From a virus, in the IMG/VR virus record IMGVR_UViG_3300045988_135886: a DNA stretch of 64,000 nt. The stretch is one strand, 5' to 3'. The notes beneath the pieces were generated by a model. That model had not been told where the DNA came from and ran no database searches. It worked only from the letters and a program-made list of their open reading frames with translations. The position numbers were made by a program, and so were the translations under genes. Every line of letters begins with the position of its first letter. Positions within the stretch are counted from its first letter, which is position 1. This document shows, one piece after another, positions 7,556 to 64,000 of the stretch.

Positions 7556-7566
7556 CTTTTTTCTAG

Positions 7567-44727: not shown

Positions 44728-45186
44728 TTAATGATGACTAATAGCAGCAAGACAACAATTCATATTCGGTGCAACATGATGTTCAAGGGTTGAATACCTA
44801 AGACCATCCTCGTCTGAATAATTAATCTCTACAAATACAGAGTACCCTTGCATATCTTCCTCTAACTCAGACACCCTATCTGTTATTGCTTTATTGAGCT
44901 TATTCTGAAACTCTTTCGTTTCTCGTATTTCGAACTTCTTATCATAAGGTACATCAAGTCTATACTCTAAATCCCAGAGAGTATCATAATAAATTTCTTT
45001 TGAATACCCTTCCAAAGCTTCATCTTTAGTCAATTTTGTAGCTCTCATTACATCTTCCAGGACCTCATCAAAATATTCTTTGAGATCCTCTGCTTCCAAT
45101 TCTTTTTTGATATTTTCTTCACTTGTAAAACCAAGAATGAAACTACTGCTGCTGCTATTAGTTACGAATCCTTTTCTAATTTTCAT
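44728..45186 (-). CDS. GFVTNSSSSS-motif family protein (paralog 4)
   Basis: ATG 45186 behind GGGAGGA; MKIRKGFVTNSSSSSFILGF; ATGA overlap with paralog 5. Confidence 0.7.
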   Translation of the reverse strand: MKIRKGFVTNSSSSSFILGFTSEENIKKELEAEDLKEYFDEVLEDVMRATKLTKDEALEGYSKEIYYDTLWDLEYRLDVPYDKKFEIRETKEFQNKLNKAITDRVSELEEDMQGYSVFVEINYSDEDGLRYSTLEHHVAPNMNCCLAAISHH

Positions 45187-45455
45187 GACCAATCCTCCCA
45201 TTCAACAATATCTCTGTTAATACCAATTAGCCTTAGAAACTTGTTCATATCTCCATTGTCCATACATGTGAAGCCTCTAATTCCAAAATTTGTTTCATCA
45301 ATATCCCACAAATCGTCGAAATCATTCATTCCAACTTCTTTTGCAGCCTCAAAATAATTTTTAATCTTCTCAATCTGTTCATCTGTTAAATCACTTCTAG
45401 CAATAGCAAAACTGGATGAGGAACTATTGGTTACAAAGCCTATTCTTAATTTCAT
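45183..45455 (-). CDS. GFVTNSSSSS-motif family protein (paralog 5, 90 aa)
   Basis: MKLRIGFVTNSSSSSFAIAR; SD GAGGAGGA; ATGA overlaps at both ends. Confidence 0.7.
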   Translation of the reverse strand: MKLRIGFVTNSSSSSFAIARSDLTDEQIEKIKNYFEAAKEVGMNDFDDLWDIDETNFGIRGFTCMDNGDMNKFLRLIGINRDIVEWEDWS

Positions 45456-48026: not shown

Positions 48027-48258
48027 GTCTATAATTCTCCTTTCTTTTCTCTATAGTATTCCTCAAATTGTGTTCTCCATATATAATAGAGTAATACTTC
48101 AAAGCTTCTAATAATGGAACCGGATTTCCATCTAAGAAATATCCATAACCATTACCGCATTTGTGTTGAGGATTTATAAAACTTATTTGACAGATACTGC
48201 AGTACGGAGACTTACAACAGAATTCTCTTAACTTGAAATATATTTCATATCTATCCAT
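48010..48258 (-). CDS. Hypothetical Cys-rich small protein
   Basis: 82 aa, CCKSPYCSIC...HKC. Confidence 0.5.
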   Translation of the reverse strand: MDRYEIYFKLREFCCKSPYCSICQISFINPQHKCGNGYGYFLDGNPVPLLEALKYYSIIYGEHNLRNTIEKRKENYRHERRV

Positions 48259-48541
48259 GTCTTCTCCTATAAATTAATGTGCTTAAAGGAAGTTCTAACA
48301 TCTGGCTATTCCAACAATATCTTGCTTCTTTTATATGATAAAGCTTATCTTCATGCCTATAGAATGTATCATGTATCGTAATTTTTTGATCACACAATTT
48401 TTTCATTTGCTTATTAAAACCGCAGATGACATTCGGCATTCCACTAGAGTTATTAGAACCATATTCTTCCATTAAACGAGCAAACGATTTTACTTTATAT
48501 TGCCCGCCAAGTTTAAGAAATTTAAGTTTATCTGTATTCAT
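48251..48541 (-). CDS. Small beta-barrel-like paralog with C-terminal L-I-x-R-R tail (array A)
   Basis: LGGQYKVKSF...MKKLCDQKITI...STLIYRRRHG; the AGG AGA AGA tail codons form the SD of the next gene. Confidence 0.65.
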   Translation of the reverse strand: MNTDKLKFLKLGGQYKVKSFARLMEEYGSNNSSGMPNVICGFNKQMKKLCDQKITIHDTFYRHEDKLYHIKEARYCWNSQMLELPLSTLIYRRRHG

Positions 48542-48836
48542 TGTTCATCCTCTCATATAGTTTTCTAAACTTTACAAAATCTTCTTGTTTACCTCCATTG
48601 TCAGGATGAGCTTTAATCATTGCATAGTGAATAGCTTCTTTTATGTCTGGTGTAGTGGGCTTTGGTGTATCAGATTTCATTAATAGCTTTGTATAATCTT
48701 GACATATGCTGGAATAACTTAAACGTTGGATCTTGTACTTTATTTTTAGTTCTTCCACTTCCATTTTCAACTTTATAATTTTGCTTATACAACAAAACAA
48801 AACTATTAATATTATTATAAACGCTGGTGTTAGCAT
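48528..48836 (-). CDS. Membrane-anchored J-domain (DnaJ-like) protein
   Basis: ATG 48836; TM LTPAFIIILIVLFCCISKII; C-terminal IKEAIHYAMIKAHPDNGGKQEDFVKFRKLYERM (HPD motif). Confidence 0.6.
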   Translation of the reverse strand: MLTPAFIIILIVLFCCISKIIKLKMEVEELKIKYKIQRLSYSSICQDYTKLLMKSDTPKPTTPDIKEAIHYAMIKAHPDNGGKQEDFVKFRKLYERMNNEYR

Positions 48837-49894
48837 AAATCTTTCTCCTCTTTTGTGCACAAGACAATTTCTCTTGTGATCGGACATCCACCTAGACAAT
48901 CACACTGACGGCTACAATCTCTACAAGAATTCCTGAAATGGCTTCTGAAATCATCGAACACATCTGAATCCCATGCTTCCTGAATAGTGTGTTCATTAAG
49001 ATCAACTGCCCACTTAAGTTCCTGATTGTCAAAGCTACATGGCAGCATTTTCATATCTGACGTAATGTAACCAGAAAATCTTGCTCCTTCACACGGTTCC
49101 AGAGTAGAATTTAAAATCTCTTCTGTAAAATTCAACAGTCCAGGCACAGAACATGAATCAAATCCAATCTGAAATTTATAATCATGTTTATCAATCAAAG
49201 AGAAAAATTCTTTGACTCTTTCATCATCAGGAGACAATACATTTGCCTGAGTTCCTAAACCTACTGGCTTATGCAACAAGAAAATTACTGCATTGATACC
49301 ATCAGGAAAATCTTCCTGCTGCAAATGTTCAATAGCTTCATCAATAGAATTCCGTCCAAGGACATAATGAATATTGGTAGTAACTCCTGCAGATACTAAC
49401 ATATCAATCGCTTTCTGTGTATATTCACTTCTATACCAAGAAATAGCTACGGCTCCGCAATATTCTTTACATAAGGAAACAATTTTTTCATTGAATCCTA
49501 AACCGGAACTTGTAAAGTTTGGCACAATCCCTTGTGAACAACAATACTTAAGGATTTCTTCAAAATCTTCATGCTGGTCTACATCTCCTCTGCCGCCAAG
49601 AGCAAACTGAAATGTTTTCCCTTTACATTCATCTACTATTCTCTTGAAATTTTCAAGGGACATATTAGGCTCCTGTGTGTGTAATCCATTCTGATAACAC
49701 TGAACTCCTGACTGAATACACAAACCAGATGCCCCATGAACACAATGTCCCATAACACCAATATCTAACAAAGCAGGAAAATTTCTCATAAATGGTTCCT
49801 TTCCTGTTGTCAAATCATCAGACCGGATATAGAATCCTGTCTCCGGATTAAATGTTTCTACAAAATTGTTTTTCTTGTCGTAATATTTATACAT
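48830..49894 (-). CDS. Radical-SAM/SPASM-like Fe-S protein (non-canonical N-terminal Cys motif)
   Basis: C-terminal CRDCSRQCDCLGGC fits the SPASM pattern CX2CX5CX3C. FALGGRGD sits at the GGE position. The N-terminal Cys trio is GHCVHGASGLCIQSGVQC, not CX3CX2C. Confidence 0.5.
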   Translation of the reverse strand: MYKYYDKKNNFVETFNPETGFYIRSDDLTTGKEPFMRNFPALLDIGVMGHCVHGASGLCIQSGVQCYQNGLHTQEPNMSLENFKRIVDECKGKTFQFALGGRGDVDQHEDFEEILKYCCSQGIVPNFTSSGLGFNEKIVSLCKEYCGAVAISWYRSEYTQKAIDMLVSAGVTTNIHYVLGRNSIDEAIEHLQQEDFPDGINAVIFLLHKPVGLGTQANVLSPDDERVKEFFSLIDKHDYKFQIGFDSCSVPGLLNFTEEILNSTLEPCEGARFSGYITSDMKMLPCSFDNQELKWAVDLNEHTIQEAWDSDVFDDFRSHFRNSCRDCSRQCDCLGGCPITREIVLCTKEEKDLC

Positions 49895-50189
49895 GAGTTT
49901 TTCTCCTTTGAATTATTTGTGCCAATAAACCGGCAGATGTAAGCATTTCTTCATCCCAGTAATAATGTTTTATTTCATCATTTAATTCCTTATTATTAGT
50001 TTCTAAATCGTAAGTAACACGAAAAATACCAGATCTTACATTCTTAATTGTAAAAATCATCCCACAAAACCAATTCATTTCTCTAGTAAATGATGATGGT
50101 GTCTTTATGCTACCGCAAGAATTAAGTCCATATTCTTTTTCCATTTGTTCCCAAGATTTAACTCTTACTTTCTGTCCTACTTTATACAT
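49887..50189 (-). CDS. Small beta-barrel-like paralog with L-I-x-R-R tail (array A)
   Basis: MYKVGQKVRVKSWEQMEKEYG...MNWFCGMIFTI...LLAQIIQRRKTHV. Confidence 0.65.
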   Translation of the reverse strand: MYKVGQKVRVKSWEQMEKEYGLNSCGSIKTPSSFTREMNWFCGMIFTIKNVRSGIFRVTYDLETNNKELNDEIKHYYWDEEMLTSAGLLAQIIQRRKTHV

Positions 50190-50464
50190 TCCTGTCTCCT
50201 TGTGATTAACATTGATAAGTCTCCTTTTTCAAACATCTCACTTGTAAAAGTCCACGGAATTGCAGTCATTGTATAATAATAGGTATTACCAAGATTTTTT
50301 ATAGTATCTATTCGTAATTTTTTCCCACAATATTTCTTCATTTCTCCCACAAAACTGCAATAATTGTTACATCGAATAACACCATAATAATTAACACCAA
50401 ATTCTTTAACCATATCATTCCATTGTCGAATCTGGACAATGTCTCCTACTTTGTATCGCTTCAT
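50177..50464 (-). CDS. Small beta-barrel-like paralog with L-I-x-R-R tail (array A)
   Basis: MKRYKVGDIVQIRQWNDMVKEFG...MKKYCGKKLRI...LSMLITRRQECIK. Confidence 0.65.
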   Translation of the reverse strand: MKRYKVGDIVQIRQWNDMVKEFGVNYYGVIRCNNYCSFVGEMKKYCGKKLRIDTIKNLGNTYYYTMTAIPWTFTSEMFEKGDLSMLITRRQECIK

Positions 50465-50708
50465 ATAAATCTCCTAATGGTGTGATCATGTCTGTAGACC
50501 ACATATATCTACCGTTATCTTCTTCGATTCTAAAAACATTGTCGTATATAAAATATGAAACAGTTATAGTAGTTCCACAAAATCTACACATGTCTTTAAC
50601 AAAAAATGCCAAACATGGTATATATATTTCATCCCCAGTTTGAGCGGTTCCAAACTCTCTTTCCATATCATCCCAAGAACGAACTTTATACTTTTGTCCT
50701 ACTTTCAT
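50415..50708 (-). CDS. Small beta-barrel-like paralog with tail (array A); 50-nt out-of-frame overlap with the next gene
   Basis: MKVGQKYKVRSWDDMEREFG...MCRFCGTTITV...LYEAIQSRRHCPDSTME. Confidence 0.6.
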   Translation of the reverse strand: MKVGQKYKVRSWDDMEREFGTAQTGDEIYIPCLAFFVKDMCRFCGTTITVSYFIYDNVFRIEEDNGRYMWSTDMITPLGDLYEAIQSRRHCPDSTME

Positions 50709-50979
50709 TTCTCACCTCAATCATTCTTTTCAAGCCAGGTACGACCAACATATTCTCAGTAAACAAAAATTGCTCTGAAGTGTTTATACTTTTTCCTTGG
50801 TATACTCCTTCATAAAGAGGATCTTTTCTAATTATACGTATCTTATTTCCACATAAAACCTTCATCCTAGATAAAAATAATATGTCTCCAAAATCTAAGG
50901 CTCCACGAAAACCACCATTAGAAGCTTTTTTAAGCTCCTCCCAAGTTTTTAAATAATATGTTTTCCCTATTTTTAGCAT
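50686..50979 (-). CDS. Small beta-barrel-like paralog with tail (array A)
   Basis: MLKIGKTYYLKTWEELKKA...MKVLCGNKIRI...LKRMIEVRNESRTKV. Confidence 0.6.
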   Translation of the reverse strand: MLKIGKTYYLKTWEELKKASNGGFRGALDFGDILFLSRMKVLCGNKIRIIRKDPLYEGVYQGKSINTSEQFLFTENMLVVPGLKRMIEVRNESRTKV

Positions 50980-52630: not shown

Positions 52631-53044
52631 TCAATAAAAAATTTCTTTAACTCTTCCCCAAAACATAATTGAATTATCAATATCTATGCCCCATTGTTCC
52701 TCATGTGAAGAACATGTGCTCTCATACTCATACACCGGGAAACCAACTGTAACATCTTCTACCTCAATAACTTTTCCTACTGATGTAGGCCCTTTATCTT
52801 CCTGATGGTAGTAAACTATTCCAGTGAGGAATTCTATTACTGTTTCTTTATACTTTGGATTGCACCAGACATATACCCTATTTCCTGAATCATTCTCTAT
52901 TCTCCAGATAACATCTTTGTACTCTCTTGCGTTGTTGCATAGTCTTAGCCATGCCATAGCATAACTTTCTGTTGTAGGTGCTGTAAAATCGGCTGTAATC
53001 ATTACAGCCTTTTTCCGCTCAATAGATAATTTCTCTTTTAACAT
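52631..53044 (-). CDS. Hypothetical protein
   Basis: ATG 53044 behind AGAGGGA; track extension rejected. Confidence 0.55.
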   Translation of the reverse strand: MLKEKLSIERKKAVMITADFTAPTTESYAMAWLRLCNNAREYKDVIWRIENDSGNRVYVWCNPKYKETVIEFLTGIVYYHQEDKGPTSVGKVIEVEDVTVGFPVYEYESTCSSHEEQWGIDIDNSIMFWGRVKEIFY

Positions 53045-53313
53045 AGTTGTCCCTCTTTTCTTTTCAATATCATATTTCTTAATGCACCAACTATTTCTTT
53101 GCACTGGTAATCACGATTATAAAAATAAGCGGAAGAATTATAATATACTTTACACTCTTCATTAAAGCGTAATCTTGTTGGGAAATCACAAAATATATTG
53201 GTTAAAGCAGTTCCATCCGCCCATGTGTAACCTTGCTTTTTAGCTTCTTTGATTAACGCTATATATTCTGCTTTATTATTCACCAAAACAGTGCACTTTT
53301 TTAAATTTATCAT
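53038..53313 (-). CDS. Second-type small paralog carrying the same C-terminal tail (array B)
   Basis: CTVLVNNKAEYIALIKEAKKQGYTWADG...FPTRLRF...LRNMILKRKEGQLC. Confidence 0.6.
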   Translation of the reverse strand: MINLKKCTVLVNNKAEYIALIKEAKKQGYTWADGTALTNIFCDFPTRLRFNEECKVYYNSSAYFYNRDYQCKEIVGALRNMILKRKEGQLC

Positions 53314-53584
53314 TAGCCATTTCCTTTCTAATCATTATGAGCCTTCGCACTCCTTCAATTAAAACCATGCATTTAGGATAATCTCGTGCACGTCTTCCAC
53401 GAATAGAACCATAATATGTATAATAATTTTCTCTAAATTCTAGCCTCGTTGGAAACCTGCAGAAAACTTTATTTAAAGAATCCCCAGATGCCCATGTAAA
53501 TCCTTGCTTCATAGCAATTTTAGTTATAGCCGAATATTCTTTTATATTGTTGACCAATACAGTAGAATCTCTAAGATCAATCAT
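53276..53584 (-). CDS. Second-type small paralog carrying the same tail (array B)
   Basis: ATG 53584 (MIDLRDSTVLVNNIKEYSAITKIAMKQGFTWASG...FPTRLEF...VRRLIMIRKEMAND...); 38-nt overlap with the next gene. Confidence 0.6.
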   Translation of the reverse strand: MIDLRDSTVLVNNIKEYSAITKIAMKQGFTWASGDSLNKVFCRFPTRLEFRENYYTYYGSIRGRRARDYPKCMVLIEGVRRLIMIRKEMANDKFKKVHCFGE

Positions 53585-53721
53585 TTCCACCCCCAACCTT
53601 TCCAGACGAGCATTTTCTTCAAATTTTTACATTTGATGAAGCTTGGTGTATACTCTTTTGTCTCTTCACAATAGCCGAACCATCTGCCTGATATATCTTG
53701 ATGAAGTTCATATATTTTCAT
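53581..53721 (-). CDS. Small ORF (46 aa)
   Basis: Not in the track. ATGA overlaps at both ends. MKIYELHQDISGRWFGYCEETKEYTPSFIKCKNLKKMLVWKGWGWK. Confidence 0.45.
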   Translation of the reverse strand: MKIYELHQDISGRWFGYCEETKEYTPSFIKCKNLKKMLVWKGWGWK

Positions 53722-53996
53722 GAGGTCGCCTCCCTTGTCATTACTAAATATCTCAAACTATTTGCCGGAAGTAACATTGCATTGTTAAAATACCATGATA
53801 CTTCTTCATCATCTATTGATAAGAAATATTCATCTAATACAAGATCTGTAATTTTAGTTACTACACAAATTTTTCCACAAAGTTTATACATGTGGCTGTT
53901 AAAAAATAATCTTCCCATTGAATTTTCATAATGGTAATACCACCCGCTAACTAAATTTTTTCTAATCACTACTCTGTCTCCGACTTTATATCTCAT
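53718..53996 (-). CDS. Small beta-barrel-like paralog with tail (array B)
   Basis: MRYKVGDRVVIRKNL...MYKLCGKICVV...LRYLVMTREATS. Confidence 0.65.
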   Translation of the reverse strand: MRYKVGDRVVIRKNLVSGWYYHYENSMGRLFFNSHMYKLCGKICVVTKITDLVLDEYFLSIDDEEVSWYFNNAMLLPANSLRYLVMTREATS

Positions 53997-54219
53997 GATT
54001 TTCCTTTCTAATTTCTACAAGTCTACTTAAATTTCCTACTGGAATAAGTGATGATCTGTACCAGTATCCTTCTGGAGTACCAGATAGATAGTAACCTGTA
54101 TAACTTATTCTATTGATTCTATAAACTTTTCCGAGATACTTCACCCCTATCTCATGAACTGCTAGGTTACGTTTTACACGAACCCAATCTCCAACTTTTA
54201 ATTCTTTTTTCTCTTGCAT
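53986..54219 (-). CDS. Small beta-barrel-like paralog with tail (array B)
   Basis: ATG 54219 behind GGGGGA; MQEKKELKVGDWVRVKRNL...LSRLVEIRKENHEI. Confidence 0.65.
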   Translation of the reverse strand: MQEKKELKVGDWVRVKRNLAVHEIGVKYLGKVYRINRISYTGYYLSGTPEGYWYRSSLIPVGNLSRLVEIRKENHEI

Positions 54220-54491
54220 ATAAGTCCCCCTAAACACTGAACAGGTTCTAACATTATGTCACTGAAAACCCACTCGCATGTTTCATCTCCTAGTGCTAGT
54301 CTATAGTTAACATAGCCAGGATAAAATGATGAAACTTTATCTATGATTTTATATGCATGGCCACAGAATTTTTGCATGGCAATGTTAAAAAACAAATATT
54401 CATTATCACTACCATCATAATAATATCTTGTATTACCTTTCAAATTACTTCTAACTCTTACTATGTCTCCTATTTTATATTTCTCTTGCAT
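54198..54491 (-). CDS. Small beta-barrel-like paralog with tail (array B)
   Basis: MQEKYKIGDIVRVRSNL...MQKFCGHAYKI...LGGLICKRKKN. Confidence 0.65.
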   Translation of the reverse strand: MQEKYKIGDIVRVRSNLKGNTRYYYDGSDNEYLFFNIAMQKFCGHAYKIIDKVSSFYPGYVNYRLALGDETCEWVFSDIMLEPVQCLGGLICKRKKN

Positions 54492-54751
54492 ATCAAGCTC
54501 CTTAACCCATCAACAAGTATCAACATTGCATCGTTGAACACCCACTTAGATTCCTCTTCTCCTAGAGATAAACTATAAGTTTCACACCCATAATCATCTA
54601 AAGATGCTACTATCTCGTACTCCTCTCCACGGAATTTTTCCATTGCTGAAGCAAAATATAACTTTCTGCGTGCCGGATTCGAATAAGGATATTCTAACCC
54701 ACCAACTAAATCTGTCCGGACCATGACTCTATCTCCAACTTTATATTTCAT
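54470..54751 (-). CDS. Small beta-barrel-like paralog with tail (array B)
   Basis: ATG 54751 behind AGGAGGAAAC; MKYKVGDRVMVRTDL...MEKFRGEEYEI...LRSLICKRNIK. Confidence 0.65.
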   Translation of the reverse strand: MKYKVGDRVMVRTDLVGGLEYPYSNPARRKLYFASAMEKFRGEEYEIVASLDDYGCETYSLSLGEEESKWVFNDAMLILVDGLRSLICKRNIK

Positions 54752-54986
54752 GTTTCCTCCTCTTATCAATTAGTACAGTTAGTCCTTTGTAAGGAATGAA
54801 TTCCTCTGCTGGAAACCAATAATCACTAGCTTCTTCTAACTCATAAGCTTTTCTTTCAAAAGTTTTAGAAGTTAGTTCTATAATTGATTTTATGGTACAT
54901 ATATTTCCTAATAAATAATTTATATCTACGCCCCATAGAATACGAGGAGTATTAGATCTAAAAATTACTTTATCTCCTCTCTTCAT
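54741..54986 (-). CDS. Small beta-barrel-like paralog with tail (array B)
   Basis: ATG 54986; MKRGDKVIFRSN...LTVLIDKRRKHEI. Confidence 0.6.
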   Translation of the reverse strand: MKRGDKVIFRSNTPRILWGVDINYLLGNICTIKSIIELTSKTFERKAYELEEASDYWFPAEEFIPYKGLTVLIDKRRKHEI

Positions 54987-57081: not shown

Positions 57082-58606
57082 CTCCGGTCTCCTTTTCTTT
57101 GCAGTCTGGACAAAGCCCTTTGTCACCATCTTCAATTACATAGAGGCTTCCACACTCTTTACATTCTTTAACTTCTTCGTTAAGGAAATAGTCATCCTCG
57201 CTTTCAACATATGTATAATTTGTTCTTAAGCAGTGATCACATACATACTCATCGGTTGATTCCACCCATGTGACATCATCGTTTCTACATAAATCATCAC
57301 AACAATCACATGTTGTGAAATTTTCATCCCTGCAGTCATTACAGATATGCATATTTAATTCATCATAATAGTTGATATAACTATTGGGCACTCTTTCATC
57401 ACAGCAATCGCAATAAATAGAGCAATTACAGCAATACCAACTTCCGTCGATAAGGTACATCTCATCTTCGTCATAACGATCACCGCAATCACAACATCTA
57501 TGAGATCCACTGTCACCATAGTTATCATGACAATCCTCACAAAGAAGAGTGCTTTCCATATCATGCCAATCCCCACATTTTACACAGTAGATATCATGTC
57601 CAACTGTCATATGCCTATTATCTACTCTTCCCTTGGGAATCATTTTGACAATCTTACTTACTGAGCACTCACTCTGGCACTCATAATCTCTGTAGTGGGT
57701 ACCTTCAGAATTAATAACTGAGCAACAAGCAGAGGTGCCGCCTTTCTTTCTCCAAAGGTTAGGAGCCACCAAACAATCAGCGATGATTTTCTGAAGCTGT
57801 GCTCTAATTGGAGTATACAGTGAGTTTTTGCCATCGTTACATTGAGGGTAGAGTCTTCCCTGTACAAGGATTCCATCTTTATAATGGAATAACTGACGGA
57901 TGATTTTCGGCTCGAACTCTAAGTCATTTCCGTCGTACTCTTTATCTACCTGATAGTAAACCATTGTAGTTCCATCAAGGAGATAACTCATAGTTCCGGA
58001 ACAGTGACAACCTGAGAACCCATTAGGATTGTTTTTATCAAGTGTGTGGCAAGAAGACCAGCTGTTTCCATTGGAGGACAATAGATAATCAACTGGATTA
58101 ACTGACAGGATAGTGTGCCGAACAACGTCAAGAGGATTGATTGCATCTGAATATTTGGCATACCTCTTTTCAAAATCTGAATAGGTATTAGAAGTAATAC
58201 CTATAAGTGTACAGATTTTCTTCACTGCTCTTGAGGTTTTCTGACCTGCTGAAATACCTTTAATATCAGGATAGCATTCTTTAATTAAAGAAGCTGTTCG
58301 TTCGTCCAAAAGCTGTTCTCTGTAATCTCTCAGTGCAAACAAAGCATCTGTGCGTCTTCCCTTGATAATCATCCAATTAATGAAATTATAAATTTTCTCC
58401 TCGTCTGGCTGTCCCTTGATATTCTGATCAAATGCTACATAGCATTTTTCATCATTCCAGTTAGGATGATGTCTTAATAACTCAATCAAAGGGGTTTTGT
58501 TGTCTGCCCATGTGTTGATAATTTTGTCAATGGCTGAATTACCCCAAGGGATATCATACATATTAAGAACCTTAATCATACCCTGTTTCATTGTTTCTTT
58601 ATTCAT
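57074..58606 (-). CDS. Large protein with an extremely Cys-rich C-terminal region (multiple zinc ribbons)
   Basis: 510 aa. The last ~170 aa contain many CxxC/CxC pairs (CVKCGDW...CEDCHDN...CCDCGDRY...CCNCSIYCDCCDE...CNDC...CDCCDDLC...CDHC...CKECG...CPDC). Confidence 0.6.
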   Translation of the reverse strand: MNKETMKQGMIKVLNMYDIPWGNSAIDKIINTWADNKTPLIELLRHHPNWNDEKCYVAFDQNIKGQPDEEKIYNFINWMIIKGRRTDALFALRDYREQLLDERTASLIKECYPDIKGISAGQKTSRAVKKICTLIGITSNTYSDFEKRYAKYSDAINPLDVVRHTILSVNPVDYLLSSNGNSWSSCHTLDKNNPNGFSGCHCSGTMSYLLDGTTMVYYQVDKEYDGNDLEFEPKIIRQLFHYKDGILVQGRLYPQCNDGKNSLYTPIRAQLQKIIADCLVAPNLWRKKGGTSACCSVINSEGTHYRDYECQSECSVSKIVKMIPKGRVDNRHMTVGHDIYCVKCGDWHDMESTLLCEDCHDNYGDSGSHRCCDCGDRYDEDEMYLIDGSWYCCNCSIYCDCCDERVPNSYINYYDELNMHICNDCRDENFTTCDCCDDLCRNDDVTWVESTDEYVCDHCLRTNYTYVESEDDYFLNEEVKECKECGSLYVIEDGDKGLCPDCKEKETGDE

Positions 58607-59262
58607 GCTACAAATCCTCCTAAAATTGTTTCATAGAGATCCTCAGGAATCTGCTCTTTTCCTAAGTACTGTTCAGAGATTTCTCTTGCTCTCTGTACAG
58701 CTAAAGTTCCCTTGTCTTTGATTTTTTCGTAGAATGCTTCAACAGTATTCATTACTTTTGATACTGTCTCGTACTCTGTATACAGCTCTTTGTCGTCTGA
58801 CTGGATCTGTTCAAACACTTCCTGTACTCCATAGGTTACGAAGCATTCTGGACAATAATCATTGACTAAAGATCCGGAAATAATCTTTCCGCAGTGCTTA
58901 CAAATGGAGAGTTTATAATCTCTCTCATCCAGATCTTTATAGTCACCGTTTTCAAACTTGAATACCTCATACTGGTCAAAGATATAAGCTGCTTCGTAGC
59001 TCTTAGCGAGCTCCTCAAACTGAATCAGAACCTCTACAGAATCCTCTTTTTCTTGCGAAAATGTTTTTATTTTCTTGTTTAGAGGTTTCATTTTAAACTT
59101 GCTGTCCTCAATGTAGAGAAACTTTGAGTCAAAGTTCTCTGTGATGTCTTCTCCTAAGACATAGTTTTTGAAGAGGAATCCAAGGACAATATCAATGTCC
59201 TTAGATTCTACCTCTGATGAAGTGATTCTGTTATCTTTATATAAACTAATAAGTGTTGCCAT
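58603..59262 (-). CDS. Hypothetical protein with a zinc ribbon
   Basis: CKHCGK...CPEC; first gene behind the 59292-59341 promoter. Confidence 0.55.
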   Translation of the reverse strand: MATLISLYKDNRITSSEVESKDIDIVLGFLFKNYVLGEDITENFDSKFLYIEDSKFKMKPLNKKIKTFSQEKEDSVEVLIQFEELAKSYEAAYIFDQYEVFKFENGDYKDLDERDYKLSICKHCGKIISGSLVNDYCPECFVTYGVQEVFEQIQSDDKELYTEYETVSKVMNTVEAFYEKIKDKGTLAVQRAREISEQYLGKEQIPEDLYETILGGFVA

Positions 59263-59291
59263 TTGTTTTCTCCTTTCTTAACTGTAACTGC

Positions 59292-59341
59292 ATTATAAAC
59301 CAGTTTGTAAAACTTGTCAATACTTTTTACAAACTTGTTTA
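59292..59341 (-). promoter_or_regulatory. Consensus sigma70 promoter plus 18-nt box (copy 4), with an inverted repeat bracketing the -35 box
   Basis: Minus strand TAAACAAGTTTGTAAAAAGTA-TTGACA(59320-59315)-17 nt-TATAAT(59297-59292). AGTTTGTAAAA and TTTTACAAACT (11 bp) flank the -35. Confidence 0.7.
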
Positions 59342-60181
59342 AGAAATTTTCTTTCCTTTCTCGTTAAACTGTTTTGGTTCACCAAGAGATACAAGATAGT
59401 CCTGCAGGTAGAGAGCAAGACTTAATTCAACTCTTTCTGGATAAGCAGCTATTCCTTTTGCTTTAAGTGTACTTGGCTCAGTTCCTCTCATAATAGGCAA
59501 TACTTTTACTAATCCAATATCTCCGTAGAAGCAATAAATTTTATATAAGTTCCTAATTATCTTGTCACATAATCCATCTCCTGATAAGTTATAACCAGCT
59601 TTACAACAAGTAGATATAATACTTTCATAAGCTATCTTACCTTTTGCTTTAATTATCCTGTAAGCGGATGTGTAACTACCAATAGTTCCTGGTTTTCTTA
59701 CCCCTTTGTCTTCTGCAATGCTTAAATTATATTCATCAACCACTTCCTGCAACGCTACAGCATTCGGTTCACCTAAGATAAGATTTGCCTTATGCATCTG
59801 CAGCGGAGTAACTTTTTCAGTATACAAGCTCTGTCTTGTAAAGATACTTGCTTCGAAATGTCTTCTCTCATCTGGATCAGATGGGGCTGAAGTAATAACA
59901 ACACATTCGAGCTTATCTAAAATACCTTCTGATGCAATAAAACGACCATAGCCATCCACTATGGAAAATGTGCTTTCTTCTGGATGTGGCACCACTAATA
60001 ATGCATCCATAATCATATGATCAAAATTGTCATGCATTGCTTTAATTTTTCTATGATTTCGTGTTTCCAGCCGCTGATAAGCAGGATCGACAGACATCAG
60101 TTCCCTTGGAATTACTGCGCATGCCTTTGTACCAGAGATTAATAAGTTGCTCATAACTGTGTTGTAAACGATGTTTTCCAT
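59339..60181 (-). CDS. ParB N-terminal (ParB/Srx-fold) domain protein
   Basis: MSVDPAYQRLE...FSIVDGYGRFIAS; 280 aa. Confidence 0.6.
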   Translation of the reverse strand: MENIVYNTVMSNLLISGTKACAVIPRELMSVDPAYQRLETRNHRKIKAMHDNFDHMIMDALLVVPHPEESTFSIVDGYGRFIASEGILDKLECVVITSAPSDPDERRHFEASIFTRQSLYTEKVTPLQMHKANLILGEPNAVALQEVVDEYNLSIAEDKGVRKPGTIGSYTSAYRIIKAKGKIAYESIISTCCKAGYNLSGDGLCDKIIRNLYKIYCFYGDIGLVKVLPIMRGTEPSTLKAKGIAAYPERVELSLALYLQDYLVSLGEPKQFNEKGKKIS

Positions 60182-60206
60182 TTTGTTTTCCTCTTTTCTT
60201 TTTTTA

Positions 60207-60237
60207 TATAATAAAAAAGAGCTGTTTTCACAGCTCT
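60207..60237 (-). terminator. Rho-independent terminator
   Basis: Minus strand AGAGCTGT-GAAA-ACAGCTCT followed by TTTTTTATTAT; 17 nt after the stop at 60254. Confidence 0.7.
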
Positions 60238-60253
60238 AATTTTATTTCATAGT

Positions 60254-60487
60254 TTAATAGTTACATTCTACTAAGTTGGTGAGATACTCAATACCATGAC
60301 CACATAAAGCAGTCAGAATTTCATCTAATATGTCAAATTCTCCGTCTGTTTCGCATGATTCAAGAGCTTGAATGATTCCGTAGCCTTTTTCATACTCACT
60401 GGTATTCACAAGTTCCTTAGTTACTGTGTCACCGAGTTTTTCCTCGGCATAATCAACTCTGTAGAGTCTTTCCTTTGCTGTCTTCAT
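60254..60487 (-). CDS. Hypothetical acidic protein
   Basis: 77 aa; SD AAGGAGG lies inside the tail codons of the upstream gene. Confidence 0.55.
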   Translation of the reverse strand: MKTAKERLYRVDYAEEKLGDTVTKELVNTSEYEKGYGIIQALESCETDGEFDILDEILTALCGHGIEYLTNLVECNY

Positions 60488-60804
60488 TTTGAAAACCTCC
60501 TTGATATGATTAATTCTTTAAGATTTTTGGGGTATTTTGTCCAAATTAAATCTTTATCTTTGTATTTCATTTCATAAGTAAGTCCATTTACAGTTGACTT
60601 ATATAGAGCTTTTATAGAGCAAATGCCACGAATAGTGCTCAAATTTTCATCGTAATTACTGCCTATCATAAAACCATCAGGTCCAATAATACAAAAATCT
60701 TGACTGCCATAATTCGCCGTCTCGCAATCGGTAAGAACAAGATAGCTTCCTGCTGGTGTGACAGCTATCATTCCAGACCGGAGCTTCTTTCTTAAATCAA
60801 CCAT
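60484..60804 (-). CDS. Larger paralog carrying the L-I-x-R-R tail (array C)
   Basis: 106 aa ending ...PKNLKELIISRRFSK. Confidence 0.6.
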   Translation of the reverse strand: MVDLRKKLRSGMIAVTPAGSYLVLTDCETANYGSQDFCIIGPDGFMIGSNYDENLSTIRGICSIKALYKSTVNGLTYEMKYKDKDLIWTKYPKNLKELIISRRFSK

Positions 60805-61042
60805 GCTGCCTCCTTTCTATTAGTGTACGGACAGATGAAATAAGTTTCAGGTCTTCAGCATAGCTCCACCAATAGTGGTAATCTGAGCCACCATTTCCAT
60901 TGTGTAATGAAATGTTTTCTTTATAGTAATAGACTAAATATTGGAATGGTTCTCCAAGATCTTTGTCAATATCTTCTATCTGTCCTATACCGTAATATTT
61001 ATGATATATGTCACCTATATTTAATTCTTTAGGATGTTGCAT
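60797..61042 (-). CDS. Small Tudor/SH3-like paralog with tail (array C)
   Basis: NIGDIYHKYYGIGQIEDI...YHYWWSY...VRTLIERRQHG. Confidence 0.65.
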   Translation of the reverse strand: MQHPKELNIGDIYHKYYGIGQIEDIDKDLGEPFQYLVYYYKENISLHNGNGGSDYHYWWSYAEDLKLISSVRTLIERRQHG

Positions 61043-61265
61043 TTCTTCTCCTTTCTATTAGCTTGCACAAAGACACTGAACGGACAAGAGTAAGTGAACT
61101 TCTGAAGCACCACCAATAGCGACAATCTGGGCCTCTATCGTTGCCATTATACAAACGGTTATTTTCTTTATAAAAATAAACTAGATATGGCGCTGAGGAA
61201 GATCTAATATCTATTATTCTTCCCATACCAGAATTGCTTCGCCATACTATATCACCTATTTTCAT
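61029..61265 (-). CDS. Small Tudor/SH3-like paralog with tail (array C)
   Basis: MKIGDIVWRSNSGMGRIIDI...CRYWWCF...LCKLIERRRNATS. Confidence 0.65.
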   Translation of the reverse strand: MKIGDIVWRSNSGMGRIIDIRSSSAPYLVYFYKENNRLYNGNDRGPDCRYWWCFRSSLTLVRSVSLCKLIERRRNATS

Positions 61266-61495
61266 TGTTGCCTCCTCTCTATTAATGATGCCAGCGGAGG
61301 AAGGTACTTCATTCTTTTAATGTCGTCAGAACCAAACCACCAACCATGGTTGTCTGGACAGGAACCTGGCTCTATTGCACCATCATGTAGGTTATCATTT
61401 GCTTTGAAAAAGTACACAAGTTCACTACTGCCAGGTCTGAATTTTATAACTTTGCCTAACCCATAAAATGGGTCTTTAATGTATTCTCCTATCAT
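61262..61495 (-). CDS. Small Tudor/SH3-like paralog with tail (array C)
   Basis: MIGEYIKDPFYGLGKVIKF...NHGWWFG...LASLIERRQQ. Confidence 0.65.
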   Translation of the reverse strand: MIGEYIKDPFYGLGKVIKFRPGSSELVYFFKANDNLHDGAIEPGSCPDNHGWWFGSDDIKRMKYLPPLASLIERRQQ

Positions 61496-61737
61496 TTGCC
61501 TTGCCTCTTTTCTATGAAATGTCTCAATGGTTTCTTGTGTAAGAGCTTGATTTCATCTTTTCTGTAAACCGTACAGTCTACAACAATTCTATCATCAATT
61601 GAGCCACTATATAAAAATATTTTATTGTAGGAATGACTATAAGTGACTACATAAGGGTAAAAGACTATACCCCTATACCATATCAGCTTTCCTATTTTAT
61701 CTTTACGATTATATACATATATGTTCTGCATAGTCAT
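61492..61737 (-). CDS. Small paralog with tail (array C)
   Basis: ...KIGKLIWYRGIVFYPY...PLRHFIEKRQGK; start is ATG 61737 or 61731. Confidence 0.6.
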   Translation of the reverse strand: MTMQNIYVYNRKDKIGKLIWYRGIVFYPYVVTYSHSYNKIFLYSGSIDDRIVVDCTVYRKDEIKLLHKKPLRHFIEKRQGK

Positions 61738-61964
61738 TCCTTTCTCTTGGTGATCAGATCAATCAGCGGTCTCTTCCTGAGAAACTTGATATGTTCTTTG
61801 CCATAGCAGAGAGCGTTAGTTAGATATCTTCCTTCATAGTATCCAGAGTAAAAGTTTGAATCATGTTTATAATGGTCTACTATGTAGTGAGAGTGCCATA
61901 ATGATCCGTCATAAAAATTTAATTTACCTAAACCATTAGGTGTCTTTACATAAATATGTCTCAC
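61734..61964 (-). CDS. Small paralog with tail (array C)
   Basis: GTG start behind AAAGGAGAA; TPNGLGKLNFYDG...PLIDLITKRKE. Confidence 0.6.
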   Translation of the reverse strand: MRHIYVKTPNGLGKLNFYDGSLWHSHYIVDHYKHDSNFYSGYYEGRYLTNALCYGKEHIKFLRKRPLIDLITKRKE

Positions 61965-62146
61965 CGTTGTTCTCCTTTCCTGCGTAAAATCGCTTCATAA
62001 AGAGTATTATGAACCAATAATGGTTCTACTATTTTTTTAGGAAAGTCAAAAATATAATTTCCATGTAGAAATTCTACAGTATATTTATTATTTGACTCTT
62101 TGGACACATAGCCCAGTCCTATTAATGTTGTATAAATTATTTTCAT
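61961..62146 (-). CDS. Small paralog with tail (array C, first member)
   Basis: SD AGGAGGTAAAC; LIGLGYVSKES...TLYEAILRRKGEQR. Confidence 0.6.
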   Translation of the reverse strand: MKIIYTTLIGLGYVSKESNNKYTVEFLHGNYIFDFPKKIVEPLLVHNTLYEAILRRKGEQR

Positions 62147-62188
62147 GTTTACCTCCTAATCGAATCATAGCAAACATCTGTTCCCTTG

Positions 62189-62413
62189 TCAAGCATCTAT
62201 ATAACAGAAACTTCCGGTTCCTGTATCTACAGTGCAACAAGCATGTTCATATTTCATTATCAGACGATTAAATTTCTCTTCTGACATAGGGGTCTTCACT
62301 TTGAATGGATGCGCCCAAGGTGAATTCACTTGCATTCTATTCGGAAGCAAATATACAGGATTCCCTGCAACAAGTGCTTTTTGTGCTTCTCTTCTGGTTA
62401 CTTTCTTTAACAT
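62189..62413 (-). CDS. Hypothetical small protein
   Basis: 74 aa, SD AGAAAGGAAAC. Confidence 0.5.
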   Translation of the reverse strand: MLKKVTRREAQKALVAGNPVYLLPNRMQVNSPWAHPFKVKTPMSEEKFNRLIMKYEHACCTVDTGTGSFCYIDA

Positions 62414-62519
62414 ATTGTTTCCTTTCTAAGCAGCATAGTTAAACATCTTGGAGGAAAACGGGTAACCCTAGATTTCATGCTACCCTTTTTGAGTAATTCA
62501 AGATGCTTAAATATACTGC

Positions 62520-62852
62520 TTATGCAGTATATTGTGATAATTGGTCTAATGTGCCAACATAGTGAGCGTCTACAATTTCATCGTCATAGACTTCATCAGT
62601 TCCGTTGGAGTTCATGATGCAAGATGCAAGGTCATTAATAGACCAACAGTCTTCTGCGTCAGCGTACCAAGAGAACTGATTTCCATTGGCAGTTGTCATA
62701 GTAATCAGATCCGTATCTTCCATGTGCTCAACCTCTGTTACTATTCCAGTCAGAGGATATAGGTCTTTGTATTCTCCATCTGTTGTTGGAGCTGCTGATA
62801 CTGGGGTTGCTATCATCATAGTTGTTAATACTACTGCTAATAATTTCTTCAT
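62520..62852 (-). CDS. Secreted acidic protein
   Basis: Signal peptide MKKLLAVVLTTMMIATPVSAAP. Confidence 0.65.
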   Translation of the reverse strand: MKKLLAVVLTTMMIATPVSAAPTTDGEYKDLYPLTGIVTEVEHMEDTDLITMTTANGNQFSWYADAEDCWSINDLASCIMNSNGTDEVYDDEIVDAHYVGTLDQLSQYTA

Positions 62853-62878
62853 GATTTTTATTTCCTTTCTTATATATC

Positions 62879-63079
62879 TTATATAACTACTATAAATTTA
62901 TAGATATCTACATACTGGTCTAACTGATATACAGGTGCCTTATCAAAGATAGGCAACAGTCTATCAATAATATCTTGGTATTGCTTTGTGAGTTCTGCTA
63001 AGATAGCTTCATACACTACGTTTGACAACTCACAGAATTTCAAAGTCATAATCTCTTGTATTGTGTATACGTTATTCAT
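62879..63079 (-). CDS. Hypothetical small protein
   Basis: 66 aa, SD AAAGGAGGAA. Confidence 0.5.
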   Translation of the reverse strand: MNNVYTIQEIMTLKFCELSNVVYEAILAELTKQYQDIIDRLLPIFDKAPVYQLDQYVDIYKFIVVI

Positions 63080-63094
63080 AACAGAATTCCTCCT

Positions 63095-63328
63095 TTAGAT
63101 AAAATTCACTATCTCTCTTGCAAGATAGCTATACATAACAGACACTGAAATTCTGTGCCAGTTTCCATTCTGAAACATTAACACAGGAATATTCATAGGA
63201 TCCTTTGGACGTTCAATACATATGAACTGAAGTCCATTGCCTCTAATAAATAAGGCTCCTTTAGGTACTGTGTAACCCAAAAGAGCCTCTTTCCGTTGTA
63301 TTCTGACAGTTGTATATTTGTATGTCAT
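63095..63328 (-). CDS. Hypothetical small protein
   Basis: 77 aa, ATGA overlap with the RHH gene. Confidence 0.5.
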   Translation of the reverse strand: MTYKYTTVRIQRKEALLGYTVPKGALFIRGNGLQFICIERPKDPMNIPVLMFQNGNWHRISVSVMYSYLAREIVNFI

Positions 63329-63510
63329 TGTGATTCCTCCAATTTTTCTTTAATCAATGCCCGGATGAGTCCTGCTTTGGAATATCCATGTTCTTCGCAA
63401 TATGCTTCAAGCGCTTCTGCTTCCTTAATAGGCATTGACAGTTTCACTTGTCTGTAGTTATTATCGAAATATTTTTTACTTGCTCTCTTCTGAGCTTCTG
63501 ATACTGCCAT
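63325..63510 (-). CDS. Ribbon-helix-helix (CopG/Arc-like) DNA-binding protein
   Basis: SEAQKRASKKYFDNNYRQVKLSMPIKEAEALEAYCEEHGYSKAGLIRALIKEKL fits the beta-alpha-alpha RHH pattern. Confidence 0.5.
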   Translation of the reverse strand: MAVSEAQKRASKKYFDNNYRQVKLSMPIKEAEALEAYCEEHGYSKAGLIRALIKEKLEESQ

Positions 63511-63523
63511 TTCTTTTCTCCAA

Positions 63524-63551
63524 TAAAAAAGACACCTCTTTCGAGATGTCT
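63524..63551 (-). terminator. Rho-independent terminator
   Basis: Minus strand AGACATCTC-GAAA-GAGGTGTCT (9 bp, one G-U) followed by TTTTTATTGG, directly after the stop at 63551. Confidence 0.7.
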
Positions 63552-63751
63552 TAGTCTGCGCAAAGCACTCCTATTTTAGACCATGAGGCTGGTCCTCTGT
63601 CTACTATAGTACACAAGTCTGGATGAAATTCATGCGGCATAAAAATTTTATCAATCCAATTGTCCGCTGCTACTTCATCTATAAAGTAAGTTTCCGTTGT
63701 GTATTCTACAGTAGTATACGGTACTCTATGTAATATACTAACGTAATACAT
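63551..63751 (-). CDS. Hypothetical small protein
   Basis: 66 aa, SD AAAAGGAGAG. Confidence 0.5.
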   Translation of the reverse strand: MYYVSILHRVPYTTVEYTTETYFIDEVAADNWIDKIFMPHEFHPDLCTIVDRGPASWSKIGVLCAD

Positions 63752-63754
63752 ATA

Positions 63755-63973
63755 TCACTCTCCTTTTGTCCCTATTTTAGTTCCATCTGGGAAATCAAAG
63801 GAACAGTTAAATTCTGCTCCCATACAACGAGCTATTTCTTGAAGTTCATCAAGAGTGAATTTGCCTCTCTGGATTCTTTTAGATATATTCTGTTGAGTTA
63901 CTCCCAAACGAGCACCAAGTTCCGTTTTGCTCATGTTTGCCTTGGCTAAGGCTGGATTAATAATTCTCTGCAT
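63755..63973 (-). CDS. XRE/Cro-type helix-turn-helix regulator
   Basis: MSKTELGARLGVTQQNISKRIQRGKFTLDELQEIARCMG; SD GTAGGAGGTA. Confidence 0.75.
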   Translation of the reverse strand: MQRIINPALAKANMSKTELGARLGVTQQNISKRIQRGKFTLDELQEIARCMGAEFNCSFDFPDGTKIGTKGE

Positions 63974-64000
63974 AGGTTTATACCTCCTACAGAGATTATA

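Follow-up and report, generated by a model that had tools for sequence, protein, structure and literature searches.

Basic C-terminal tail codons coincide with the Shine-Dalgarno site of the next gene in a tandem array of small, predicted Tudor-like phage genes

Does a short basic tail at the end of a phage protein belong to the protein, or is it simply the Shine-Dalgarno (SD) sequence of the following gene read in frame? The question is raised by seven successive small genes on the minus strand (62146 to 60484) of a 64,000-nt viral DNA stretch (IMG/VR record IMGVR_UViG_3300045988_135886), hereafter the window, which carry the C-terminal motif [L]-x-x-[LF]-I-x-[RK]-R. These genes, which we call array C and number g8 to g14, had been described in an initial annotation as sharing this tail: all seven open reading frames are indeed present, but g8 and g14 fit the motif loosely. 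All features described below are on the minus strand. The first gene, g8 (61 aa, 61961..62146), ends in AILRRKGEQR. It is followed by five genes for predicted Tudor-like paralogs: g9 (76 aa, GTG start, 61734..61964, ending in LIDLITKRKE), which falls in a subgroup with g10; g10 (79 aa, 61492..61731, HFIEKRQGK), for which an alternative start at 61737 would give 81 aa, its homologs having either MQNIYVY or MxMQNIYVY as N-terminus; g11 (77 aa, 61262..61495, SLIERRQQ); g12 (78 aa, 61029..61265, KLIERRRNATS); and g13 (81 aa, 60797..61042, TLIERRQHG). The last gene of the array, g14 (106 aa, 60484..60804, ELIISRRFSK), is unrelated in sequence to the paralogs.

The array is continued by g15 (77 aa, 60254..60487), which encodes an acidic protein lacking the basic tail, and beyond which there is no gene within 70 nt. 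A promoter-like element, TTGACA-17-(TG)TATGAT (62164..62192), adjoins g8 upstream; it is a consensus match (11/12), and the same pattern occurs upstream of the g8-like gene in five related loci (L001, L002, L008, L009, L011). Weaker promoter-like matches are also found inside array C. At the other end, 17 nt past the g15 stop, a pattern match identifies a terminator-like hairpin, AGAGCTGTGAAAACAGCTCT, with a T-run after it (60218..60237), which is kept in 14 of 17 IMG/VR loci. Altogether g8 to g15 look like a single eight-gene operon between promoter-like and terminator-like sites. Megablast of positions 59000-64000 against GenBank phages gave no match, an Rfam scan of 58000-64000 gave no family, and a scan of genome contigs with g12 confirmed no relative, so that the clue to a Blautia-type host comes from cluster names only.

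The initial annotation had proposed that the same purine-rich nucleotides form both the basic tail codons and the SD of the next gene, and gene calls and junction layout bear this out. At all seven junctions the next start codon lies 4-8 nt past the purine-rich stretch of R/K codons, and an SD match of 5-10 nt to AGAAAGGAGGTGA, with the same spacing of 4-8 nt, is found within the upstream reading frame; the matches were scored against AGAAAGGAGGTGA as the presumed complement of the host 16S 3' end. One junction departs from the description of the R/K codons themselves as the ribosome-binding site (RBS): between g8 and g9 (CGCAGGAAAGGAGAA, 61970..61984) the core GGAG is in K-G-E, past the RR; here the GTG start overlaps the TGA stop. 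The remaining sites are CACCAAGAGAAAGGA between g9 and g10 (61738..61752), ATAGAAAAGAGG between g10 and g11 (61504..61515, ATGA overlap), ATAGAGAGGAGG between g11 and g12 (61271..61282, ATGA overlap), ATAGAAAGGAGA between g12 and g13 (61047..61058, 14-nt overlap), ATAGAAAGGAGG between g13 and g14 (60809..60820, the exact extended SD, 8-nt overlap), and ATATCAAGGAGG between g14 and g15 (60496..60507, ATGA overlap). Stop and start codons had been said to overlap throughout. This is so at six junctions (GTGA, three ATGA, 8 nt and 14 nt) but not at g9/g10, where the plausible start at 61731 (6-nt spacing) leaves a 2-nt spacer and therefore reduces the count to 6/7. Coupled translation is probable with this arrangement; at the least, the packing is as tight as it can be. 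RNA folds of the junctions are not more stable than those of shuffled sequences (z from −0.7 to +1.35), so there is no sign of the SD masking that strict coupling would require, and SD-masking hairpins were dropped from consideration; given junction RNAs of ordinary structure, each gene may also initiate independently.

By sequence comparison only g9 to g13 (61964-60797) are demonstrable paralogs; the flanking genes of 61 and 106 aa share the tail only. Within this group BLASTP E-values range from 1e-8 to 1e-16 (g9-g10 1.3e-8, g11-g12 3e-9, g11-g13 5e-9, g12-g13 8e-16), the five proteins still score 1e-23 to 1e-31 with a family HMM from which the tail columns were removed, and g9 matches the HMM of alignment A4 with E 2.9e-30. 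The corresponding values for g8 (A4 HMM E 0.9, hhalign probability 5.8%) and g14 (HMM E 8.6, hhalign 0.8%) carry no significance, so the seven genes do not form the one family originally envisaged, and the idea that g8 and g14 might be very divergent Tudor members was rejected, as HMM and hhalign give it no support. The pattern G-[LIM]-G-[KRQ] is present in g9, g11, g12 and g13; g8 has GLGY, g10 has KIGK, and g14 is without it. Recent tandem duplication inside this genome was also rejected, because the paralogs share only short DNA repeats (14-22 nt).

For these five central genes the early guess of a Tudor/SH3-like fold holds in the light of AF2 modeling, Pfam matches of distant homologs, Foldseek and a widened profile. 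We predict that g9 to g13 encode divergent Tudor/SH3-like barrels with a C-terminal helix, nearest to the C-terminal Tudor domain of PcrA/UvrD and to the RID domain of CarD/Mfd. The AF2 model of g13 (pLDDT 68.8, pTM 0.55) has five strands and a C-terminal helix at residues 71-80, for which confidence is low (block means 42-52). The top Foldseek matches in the PDB are PcrA/UvrD Tudor domains and the N-terminal domain of CdnL (best entries 5dma, 7egs_B, 7egt_B and 9dqs), with target-normalised TM of 0.67-0.71 and weak E-values (0.09 or worse). Neither PHROGs nor Pfam gave anything above threshold for the window proteins: g12 reaches 13 bits (CarD_TRCF_RID) and g13 15.7 bits, both under the cut-off of 23, and Pfam has no match for g9, g10 and g11. 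Precomputed above-threshold Pfam matches exist for close g13 alleles (P0095, P0101, P0104). In distant homologs, retrieved from a search of 1.84 billion proteins, the barrel domain occurs as 2-4 internal repeats, and one such protein, P0142, passes Pfam both as PcrA_UvrD_tudor (54 bits) and as CarD_TRCF_RID (38 bits). Against PDB sequences the widened profile A6 finds UvrD1/UvrD/PcrA Tudor chains at E 0.002-0.16, and the narrow profile A4 finds noise only, plus one weak UvrD1 match. The similarity to PcrA/UvrD is mostly confined to the first three strands.

The surface residues by which PcrA binds RNA polymerase are H681, W684, K712 and L714 (PMC5397179). Both g13 and the distant repeats have equivalents of the His and of the aromatic residue, g11 has the aromatic residue only, and g9, g10 and g12 have neither; residues of the second half cannot be placed in the alignment. 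The paralogs might bind a protein of the host, for example the beta lobe of its RNA polymerase, with a binding face diversified among the copies, but we hold this to be rather doubtful. No publication describing phage Tudor-like proteins that bind RNA polymerase as free-standing units came up in a literature search. If the barrel did bind the polymerase of the host, these proteins would be new phage transcription modulators in a major gut genus.

Tails of the same kind occur elsewhere in the window. Array A (53718..54986) comprises five members of a second SH3-like family that appears to share a homologous C-terminal strand-plus-tail module, and array B (48251..50979) contains five further members of this second family, with a SPASM-domain gene and other genes lying between them. 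That arrays A and B have this tail in common with array C, as was first proposed, is supported by hhalign, which aligns the A/B family with the Tudor family over the last strands and the tail with 93.8% probability (E 1.8e-7); an earlier comparison with small profiles had been equivocal (52%). An unrelated A/B family with a convergent tail was rejected, since hhalign supports a homologous C-terminal module. At four A/B junctions (g24/g25, g25/g26, g34/g35 and g35/g36) the next start codon precedes the tail or falls inside it, which means that the K/R codons do not form the SD at these places.

These observations can be set against the different explanations of the tail. It may have no function in the protein, being the passive translation of the extended SD AGAAAGGAGG in the AGG-AGG frame, inherited from one duplicated junction. 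E-R-R is exactly the GAA-AGG-AGG of the anti-SD complement, and the use of AGG is far above background: the tail Arg codons number 76 AGG, 19 AGA and 0 CGN (80% AGG), versus 13% AGG and 24% CGN in the window genes, which indicates that the codon choice in the tail is shaped by the SD. All tail-bearing genes have an overlapping successor; among the homologs no family member was found with a tail and without such a successor, and therefore constraint at the protein level and constraint at the SD level are never cleanly separated in nature. The sole gene of the putative operon with no downstream neighbor, g15, is also the one without a tail, and the internal repeats of the distant multi-domain homologs have none. 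On the other hand the conserved Leu, Leu/Phe and Ile, which lie outside the SD, are specified by 5, 7 and 3 different codons, respectively, in 59 unique genes; the A/B family keeps the tail although its K/R codons are downstream of the next start; and the final Arg, which the search pattern requires, is found in every motif gene of both families and does not vary in alignments A2-A5. The tail is also retained in relatives that fall into separate clusters at 50% identity (P0123, P0130, P0131, P0136, P0141, P0143, P0145), and the sequence-unrelated g8 and g14 carry and conserve similar tails, with g8 orthologs at 59% identity keeping ILRRKGQGK and the tail of g14 strongly conserved in orthologs of 58-59% identity. 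Embedded SDs in ordinary genes favor the Glu or Gly frames: they are read as Arg in 7 of 37 ordinary window genes, whereas in array C this holds for 5 of 7 (Fisher p 0.011), and 15 of the 108 called genes have the motif, defined post hoc, within their final 14 aa, versus 0.5% of internal 14-aa windows (binomial p ~1e-17, indicative only because genes are not independent), although both statistics overstate significance, paralogs not being independent observations. The suggestion that the tail is purely a by-product of the SD is thus contradicted by the variety of synonymous codons, by the A/B tails off the SD and by the frame counts; we consider a passive origin unlikely and conclude, on these comparisons, that the tail is a genuine inherited feature of the proteins. 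It could also be a targeting signal, either a degron resembling the MuA-type ClpX C-motif-2 or a chaperone-binding site, conferring a short life or routing to a host machine. The one piece of evidence for such a signal is an R/K-R situated two to five residues before the C-terminal end; in bacteria as a whole, proteins show an excess of basic residues at the C-terminus (PMC7246954). The residues past the RR vary with the neighboring gene (QQ, QHG, NATS, NENR, QQWK, QGK), and the motif of P0145 stands 24 residues short of the C-terminus, both of which are awkward for a strictly C-terminal degron. We regard a targeting role of either sort as extremely improbable.

A further explanation places the emphasis on DNA: the conserved 3' end and junction would be mainly a recombination linker for the annealing recombinase of the phage, with coding and SD functions secondary. 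This explanation draws on the comparison with related phages, in which copy-number variation, block-wise mosaicism and a breakpoint at a junction substantiate the proposal of cassette duplication and exchange among relatives. The number of Tudor copies in syntenic loci is 1 (L018), 2 (L019-L021), 5 (most loci) or at least 6 (L014), and divergence among relatives is block-wise and mosaic, with conserved 3' ends. The window equals L009 up to a sequence ending in CTAATAGAAAGGAGA and differs from the next base on, which places this breakpoint exactly on the SD/tail between g12 and g13. In five loci the g10/g11 junction has received an unrelated HTH-like gene, with the same ATGA overlap, chimeric proteins between paralogs are found (P0020, P0070, P0107), and among the window genes is one for a Sak4-like single-strand annealing protein. 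Several points weigh against giving the linker the main role. Just one breakpoint is mapped to the base, the others being placed at 20-nt resolution, and breakpoints at gene boundaries are also expected when selection retains intact genes after random recombination. The near-identical 12-nt junction sequence, first put forward as a driver of duplication, amounts to no more than the SD consensus: ATAGAAAGGAGG, allowing 2 mismatches at most, is present at 5 of the 7 junctions, but it has 22 matches versus 11 expected, many of them at other, unrelated genes, and the paralogs share merely 14-22 nt of DNA at the junctions. A mainly recombinational role is in our view very unlikely. A more elaborate scheme, in which a diversifying host-takeover family docks on the RNA polymerase beta lobe or another Tudor-recognised target and the junction is a plug-and-play linker through which a Sak4-type recombinase duplicates, swaps or inserts cassettes, seems quite unlikely; if true, it would amount to a built-in gene-cassette system by which inserts into a phage accessory region are automatically in frame and translated.

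The explanation we favor, with a probability of roughly 0.7, is an eight-gene unit in which g9 to g13 arose by tandem duplication and a selected tail helix has codons that double as the RBS of the successor. Array C would be the core of a polycistronic unit running from the promoter-like element near 62190 to the terminator-like hairpin near 60230, within the early or accessory part of the genome of a large temperate phage (or prophage) from gut Firmicutes of the Blautia type; for this unit we infer a single transcript, translational coupling, a structural role of the helix and the job of the proteins. The ancestral gene would have encoded a small Tudor/SH3-like beta-barrel protein ending in a short amphipathic helix, P-L-x-x-[LF]-I-x-[RK]-R, and tandem duplication of this one gene would have produced g9 to g13. 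Because the helix ends in two basic residues, its codons could become fixed as AGG/AAG, spelling the extended SD AGAAAGGAGG 4-8 nt before the next start; each cistron would therefore carry the RBS of its successor, and thus every duplicated unit would arrive with an in-frame RBS of its own. Alleles or extra cassettes would then be swapped between related phages at the boundary given by the conserved 3' end and junction. If so, the coupling of tail and RBS shows how duplicated cassettes become self-sufficient, and array C is a clean natural case of two-level selection, for amino-acid identity and for RBS strength, on the same bases. The Tudor-like family is uncharacterised, and proteins of this putative operon are found on hundreds to more than 1000 contigs, some annotated as Blautia or Ruminococcus.

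In large phages, small early or accessory genes that are paralogous form tandem arrays, and these undergo mosaic exchange at the boundaries between genes. Array C resembles them in its small genes of unassigned function, its variable copy number and its block-by-block replacement of alleles; it differs in that the repeat unit carries a dual-use tail/RBS and one exchange boundary lies exactly there. With the Tudor domain of PcrA/UvrD (PF21196; PDB 5DMA, 7EGS) and the RID of CarD/Mfd (PF02559), which are their best profile, Pfam and Foldseek matches, the paralogs have in common a predicted five-stranded Tudor-like barrel and an N-terminal G-D-x-V-x-H-x-x-[YF]-G-x-G-x-[IV]. They are free-standing phage proteins of 76-81 aa, whereas the known domains are parts of a helicase or transcription factor, and their second half, with an L-H-x-G ... 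H-x-W-W insertion and the C-terminal helix, is distinct. The same barrel domain (LHDG ... HGWWC) is present in PHROG 22041 and in multi-repeat phage proteins (P0142, P0144), but there 2-4 repeats are joined in one polypeptide without the basic tail, and in array C each repeat is a separate cistron with its own tail. As to the junctions, an SD inside the upstream reading frame is known to constrain the C-terminus of the upstream protein (Huber et al. 2019, PMC6728339). Like the coupled overlapping pairs of that study (ATGA/TGATG overlaps), the genes of array C are co-directional, their stops and starts overlap, and a strong SD, typical of Firmicutes, is located in the 3' end of the upstream frame. 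Constraints from an SD within a reading frame and phage paralog arrays are both established, current understanding stands, and we regard array C as a neat but not unusual instance of gene duplication with probable translational coupling. It differs from the pairs described in PMC6728339 in that coupling is here deduced from gene layout, the SD is read in the otherwise disfavored Arg frame, and the codons under constraint are also those of a protein motif conserved in ~15 superfamily paralogs.

The seven ORFs of array C, g8 (61961-62146, 61 aa), g9 (61734-61964, 76 aa), g10 (61492-61731, 79 aa), g11 (61262-61495, 77 aa), g12 (61029-61265, 78 aa), g13 (60797-61042, 81 aa) and g14 (60484-60804, 106 aa), lie consecutively on the minus strand, and their basic tails are those described in the initial annotation; an eighth gene without the tail, g15 (60254-60487, 77 aa), ends the unit. 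Because g8-g15 are bracketed by a strong promoter-like site with a near-consensus extended -10 (TTGACA-17-TGnTATGAT; 62192-62164, minus strand) 5' of g8 and by a hairpin terminator (60237-60218, minus strand) 3' of g15, both kept in close relatives, they suggest a discrete eight-gene operon. Though unrelated, g14 and g15 (60254-60804) fall in one cluster of a 90%-identity protein collection, which may reflect a fused or read-through form elsewhere, or a clustering artefact.

When the tails are aligned with the starts of the following genes, 5-10 nt matching AGAAAGGAGGTGA are found 4-8 nt before each of these start codons, within the R/K and adjacent codons; the proposal that these codons are the Shine-Dalgarno (SD) site of the next gene is supported at all seven junctions. 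Stop and start codons, also said to overlap throughout, do so at six junctions (GTGA, three ATGA, 8 nt, 14 nt). The exception is g9/g10, where a start at the first ATG would adjoin the SD directly; the second, at 61731, is the plausible start of g10, leaving a 2-nt spacer. By predicted RNA folding the array C junctions are no more structured than shuffled sequences. The L-P-P codons of g11 (CUUCCUCC, 61285-61300) are able to pair with the GGAGG SD about 15 nt downstream (61271-61277); the stability of the predicted hairpin is not above that of shuffled sequences.

The seven genes do not form the single family first envisaged. In an all-against-all BLASTP comparison g11, g12 and g13 are linked with E-values of 1e-9 to 1e-16 and g9 and g10 at 1e-8, with g9 and g12 forming a weak bridge, and all five score 1e-23 or better against a family HMM built without the tail columns. 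Neither g8 (HMM E 0.9, hhalign probability 5.8%) nor g14 (E 8.6, 0.8%) is detected as a member, and the tails of both rank among the best-conserved parts of their orthologs (58-59% identity overall). Another paralog pair, g29 and g30 (53038-53584; BLASTP 3e-25), lies elsewhere in the window; the tail of g30, MILKRKEGQLC, also carries an SD, since the next gene probably starts at an ATG (53044-53042) that overlaps the g30 stop.

Is the tail a protein feature, or a mere by-product of the embedded SD? The frame in which the SD is read, the variety of the codons, and the homology and start positions in arrays A (53718-54986) and B (48251-50979), both on the minus strand, all speak against the latter. 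In 37 ordinary window genes an embedded GGAGG is read as Glu in 18, Gly in 12 and Arg in 7, while the Arg reading accounts for 5/7 cases in array C (Fisher p 0.011) and 6/11 in arrays A/B (p 0.005), in tests that treat the paralogs as independent, which they are not. In 59 unique family genes, taken from the window and from 21 related loci, the tail L is a conserved residue written with five codons (TTG, CTG, CTA, TTA, CTT), the L/F position with seven and the I with ATA, ATT and ATC. As the initial annotation had noted, arrays A and B have the tail too: their second family, of about 95 aa, ends in L-x-x-L-[IV]-x-x-R, and its predicted model is an SH3-like barrel into which helices are inserted, with a further helix at the C-terminus. 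Since hhalign links this family to the widened Tudor family over the last strands and the tail (93.8% probability, E 1.8e-7), the tail is an inherited module. The L-I-C codons contain the next ATG at g24/g25 and g25/g26, with the K-R codons downstream of it, and the gene that follows likewise starts ahead of the basic residues at g34/g35 and g35/g36; these residues are retained at all four junctions although they are not an SD. Overlaps of 22-50 nt, read in two frames, join consecutive genes of arrays A and B (54470-54491, 54198-54219, 50686-50708, 50415-50464), the same bases encoding one tail (e.g. LICKRNIK) and the next N-terminus (MQEKYKIGD).

The SD clearly shapes the DNA of the tail nonetheless: its Arg codons are 76 AGG, 19 AGA and no CGN, against 13% AGG and 24% CGN in window genes overall, and its Lys codons are mostly AAG, while AAA dominates elsewhere. 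The simplest reading is a dual constraint, on protein and on SD; an amphipathic basic helix would have pre-adapted the 3' end of the gene for use as a ribosome-binding site (RBS), and RBS selection could then have fixed AGG and AAG. A C-terminal degron or a DnaK-type binding motif had also been put forward; the residues after RR vary freely with the neighbouring gene and one homolog, P0145, has 24 extra residues past the motif, both of which argue mildly against a strictly C-terminal signal.

A survey of copy number in related phages, advocated in the initial annotation, finds the Tudor gene in syntenic loci (small genes followed by proteins of ~280, 218 and 510 aa, as in the window) once (locus L018), twice (L019-L021), five times (most IMG/VR loci) or at least six times (L014). 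In L018 (3001-3300) a 1-nt difference from the window, seen by eye (GTT to TG), leaves the one Tudor gene without its stop codon, so that P0145 reads on beyond its tail; the g14-like gene of L018 begins at an internal ATG. The copies within the window are old: what they share is no more than 14-22 nt at the junction and, outside junctions, 33-48 nt at 71-79% identity. Between phages the divergence is block-wise: gene bodies can differ by 30-45%, and despite this near-identity is kept over the junction and the last 60-80 nt of the genes. In a single base-by-base alignment of the window with L009, identity extends up to ...CTAATAGAAAGGAGA, gives way to divergence from the very next base, and returns ~80 nt upstream of the g13 stop. 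An unrelated HTH-like gene of ~67 aa (MIVYKINVLQELKHKG...) sits exactly at the g10/g11 junction in five loci (L002, L008, L010 and L011 at ~7564-7771; L009 at ~3563-3770), reusing the ATGA overlap, and chimeric proteins combine halves of different paralogs. A further protein, P0126, has a g10-like N-terminus fused to the C-terminal part of the HTH-like gene. The block-wise divergence, insertion and chimeras fit the suggested cassette shuffling, in the form of exchange bounded by conserved 3' ends; selection after recombination would also preserve breakpoints at gene boundaries. In the junction DNA, singled out as nearly identical, the highlighted 12-mer is just a generic SD, with 22 matches in the window vs 11 expected.

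The guess of a Tudor/SH3-like fold finds support for g9-g13, and none for g8 and g14. A word-indexed search returned 272 relatives, each of them near one or other of the five paralogs, and names among the matches listed are absent or just 'hypothetical protein'. Against 1.84 billion representatives, an exhaustive profile search gave only 52 matches at E <= 1e-3. The closer ones are proteins of 70-100 aa with a single domain and the tail; the distant ones are larger phage-like proteins that lack the tail and repeat the domain (F-K-[IV]-G-D-R-V-x-H-x-x-Y-G-x-G ... Y-L-V-E-F-D ... L-H-D-G ... H-G-W-W-C) two to four times. These multi-repeat proteins score above the thresholds of the Pfam families PcrA_UvrD_tudor and CarD_TRCF_RID; Pfam membership of the window proteins themselves is not supported (13-16 bits vs a cut-off of 23). 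The widened profile matches Tudor chains of UvrD1, UvrD and PcrA at E 0.002-0.16. AlphaFold2 predicts five strands for g13 (pLDDT 68.8), followed by a helix at the C-terminus (residues 71-80). The model's best PDB matches, with weak E-values and TM 0.67-0.71 on the target, are the CdnL N-terminal domain and the Tudor domains of PcrA/UvrD, among them that of 7EGS, a complex of UvrD with an RNAP lobe; its viral-library matches are uncharacterised small phage proteins. From profiles and model together, the fold class of the five paralogs is reasonably supported. RNAP binding, which might be read from that class, seems unlikely to us. The His + aromatic pair that PcrA needs for it (PMC5397179) is complete only in g13, g11 keeping the aromatic only and g9, g10 and g12 neither.

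Transcription throughout the 64-kb window (~34% G+C) is from the minus strand. Its products include a DnaB-like helicase, a Sak4-like annealing protein, an RNA ligase (6111-7400), an NAD-dependent DNA ligase (33693-35738), NAMPT (23404-24879), an NAD-synthetase-like protein (20861-22009), an integrase and a P22-type antirepressor N-domain; the ligases, NAMPT and NAD-synthetase-like protein together resemble an NAD-replenishing counter-defence set. Proteins identical or nearly so to some of the region are annotated as hypothetical in Blautia wexlerae, Blautia obeum and Ruminococcus sp., individual proteins of the region occur on hundreds to >1000 contigs, and related IMG/VR contigs measure 87-250 kb. 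On the phage-type genes, these annotations and the contig sizes, we take the window to belong to a large phage of Blautia-type gut Firmicutes, either a temperate phage or a prophage. Five otherwise dissimilar window proteins of 90-249 aa (45183-45455, 44728-45186, 43127-43876, 20263-20658, 19880-20263; all minus strand) begin with a near-identical MK[IL]R.GFVTNSSSSSF[IA]I, a shared N-terminal module.

Overall, the initial observation is confirmed and its interpretation partly supported. In phage genomes, tandem paralog arrays and boundary-limited mosaicism are standard features. What is new is an uncharacterised, gut-abundant superfamily of Tudor/SH3-like small proteins, and the fact that its conserved tail coincides with the next cistron's RBS. 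Bacterial C-termini are generally enriched in K/R (PMC7246954), and at overlapping gene pairs an SD within the upstream ORF constrains the upstream C-terminus (PMC6728339); array C resembles such pairs with intragenic SDs, which are common in Firmicutes.
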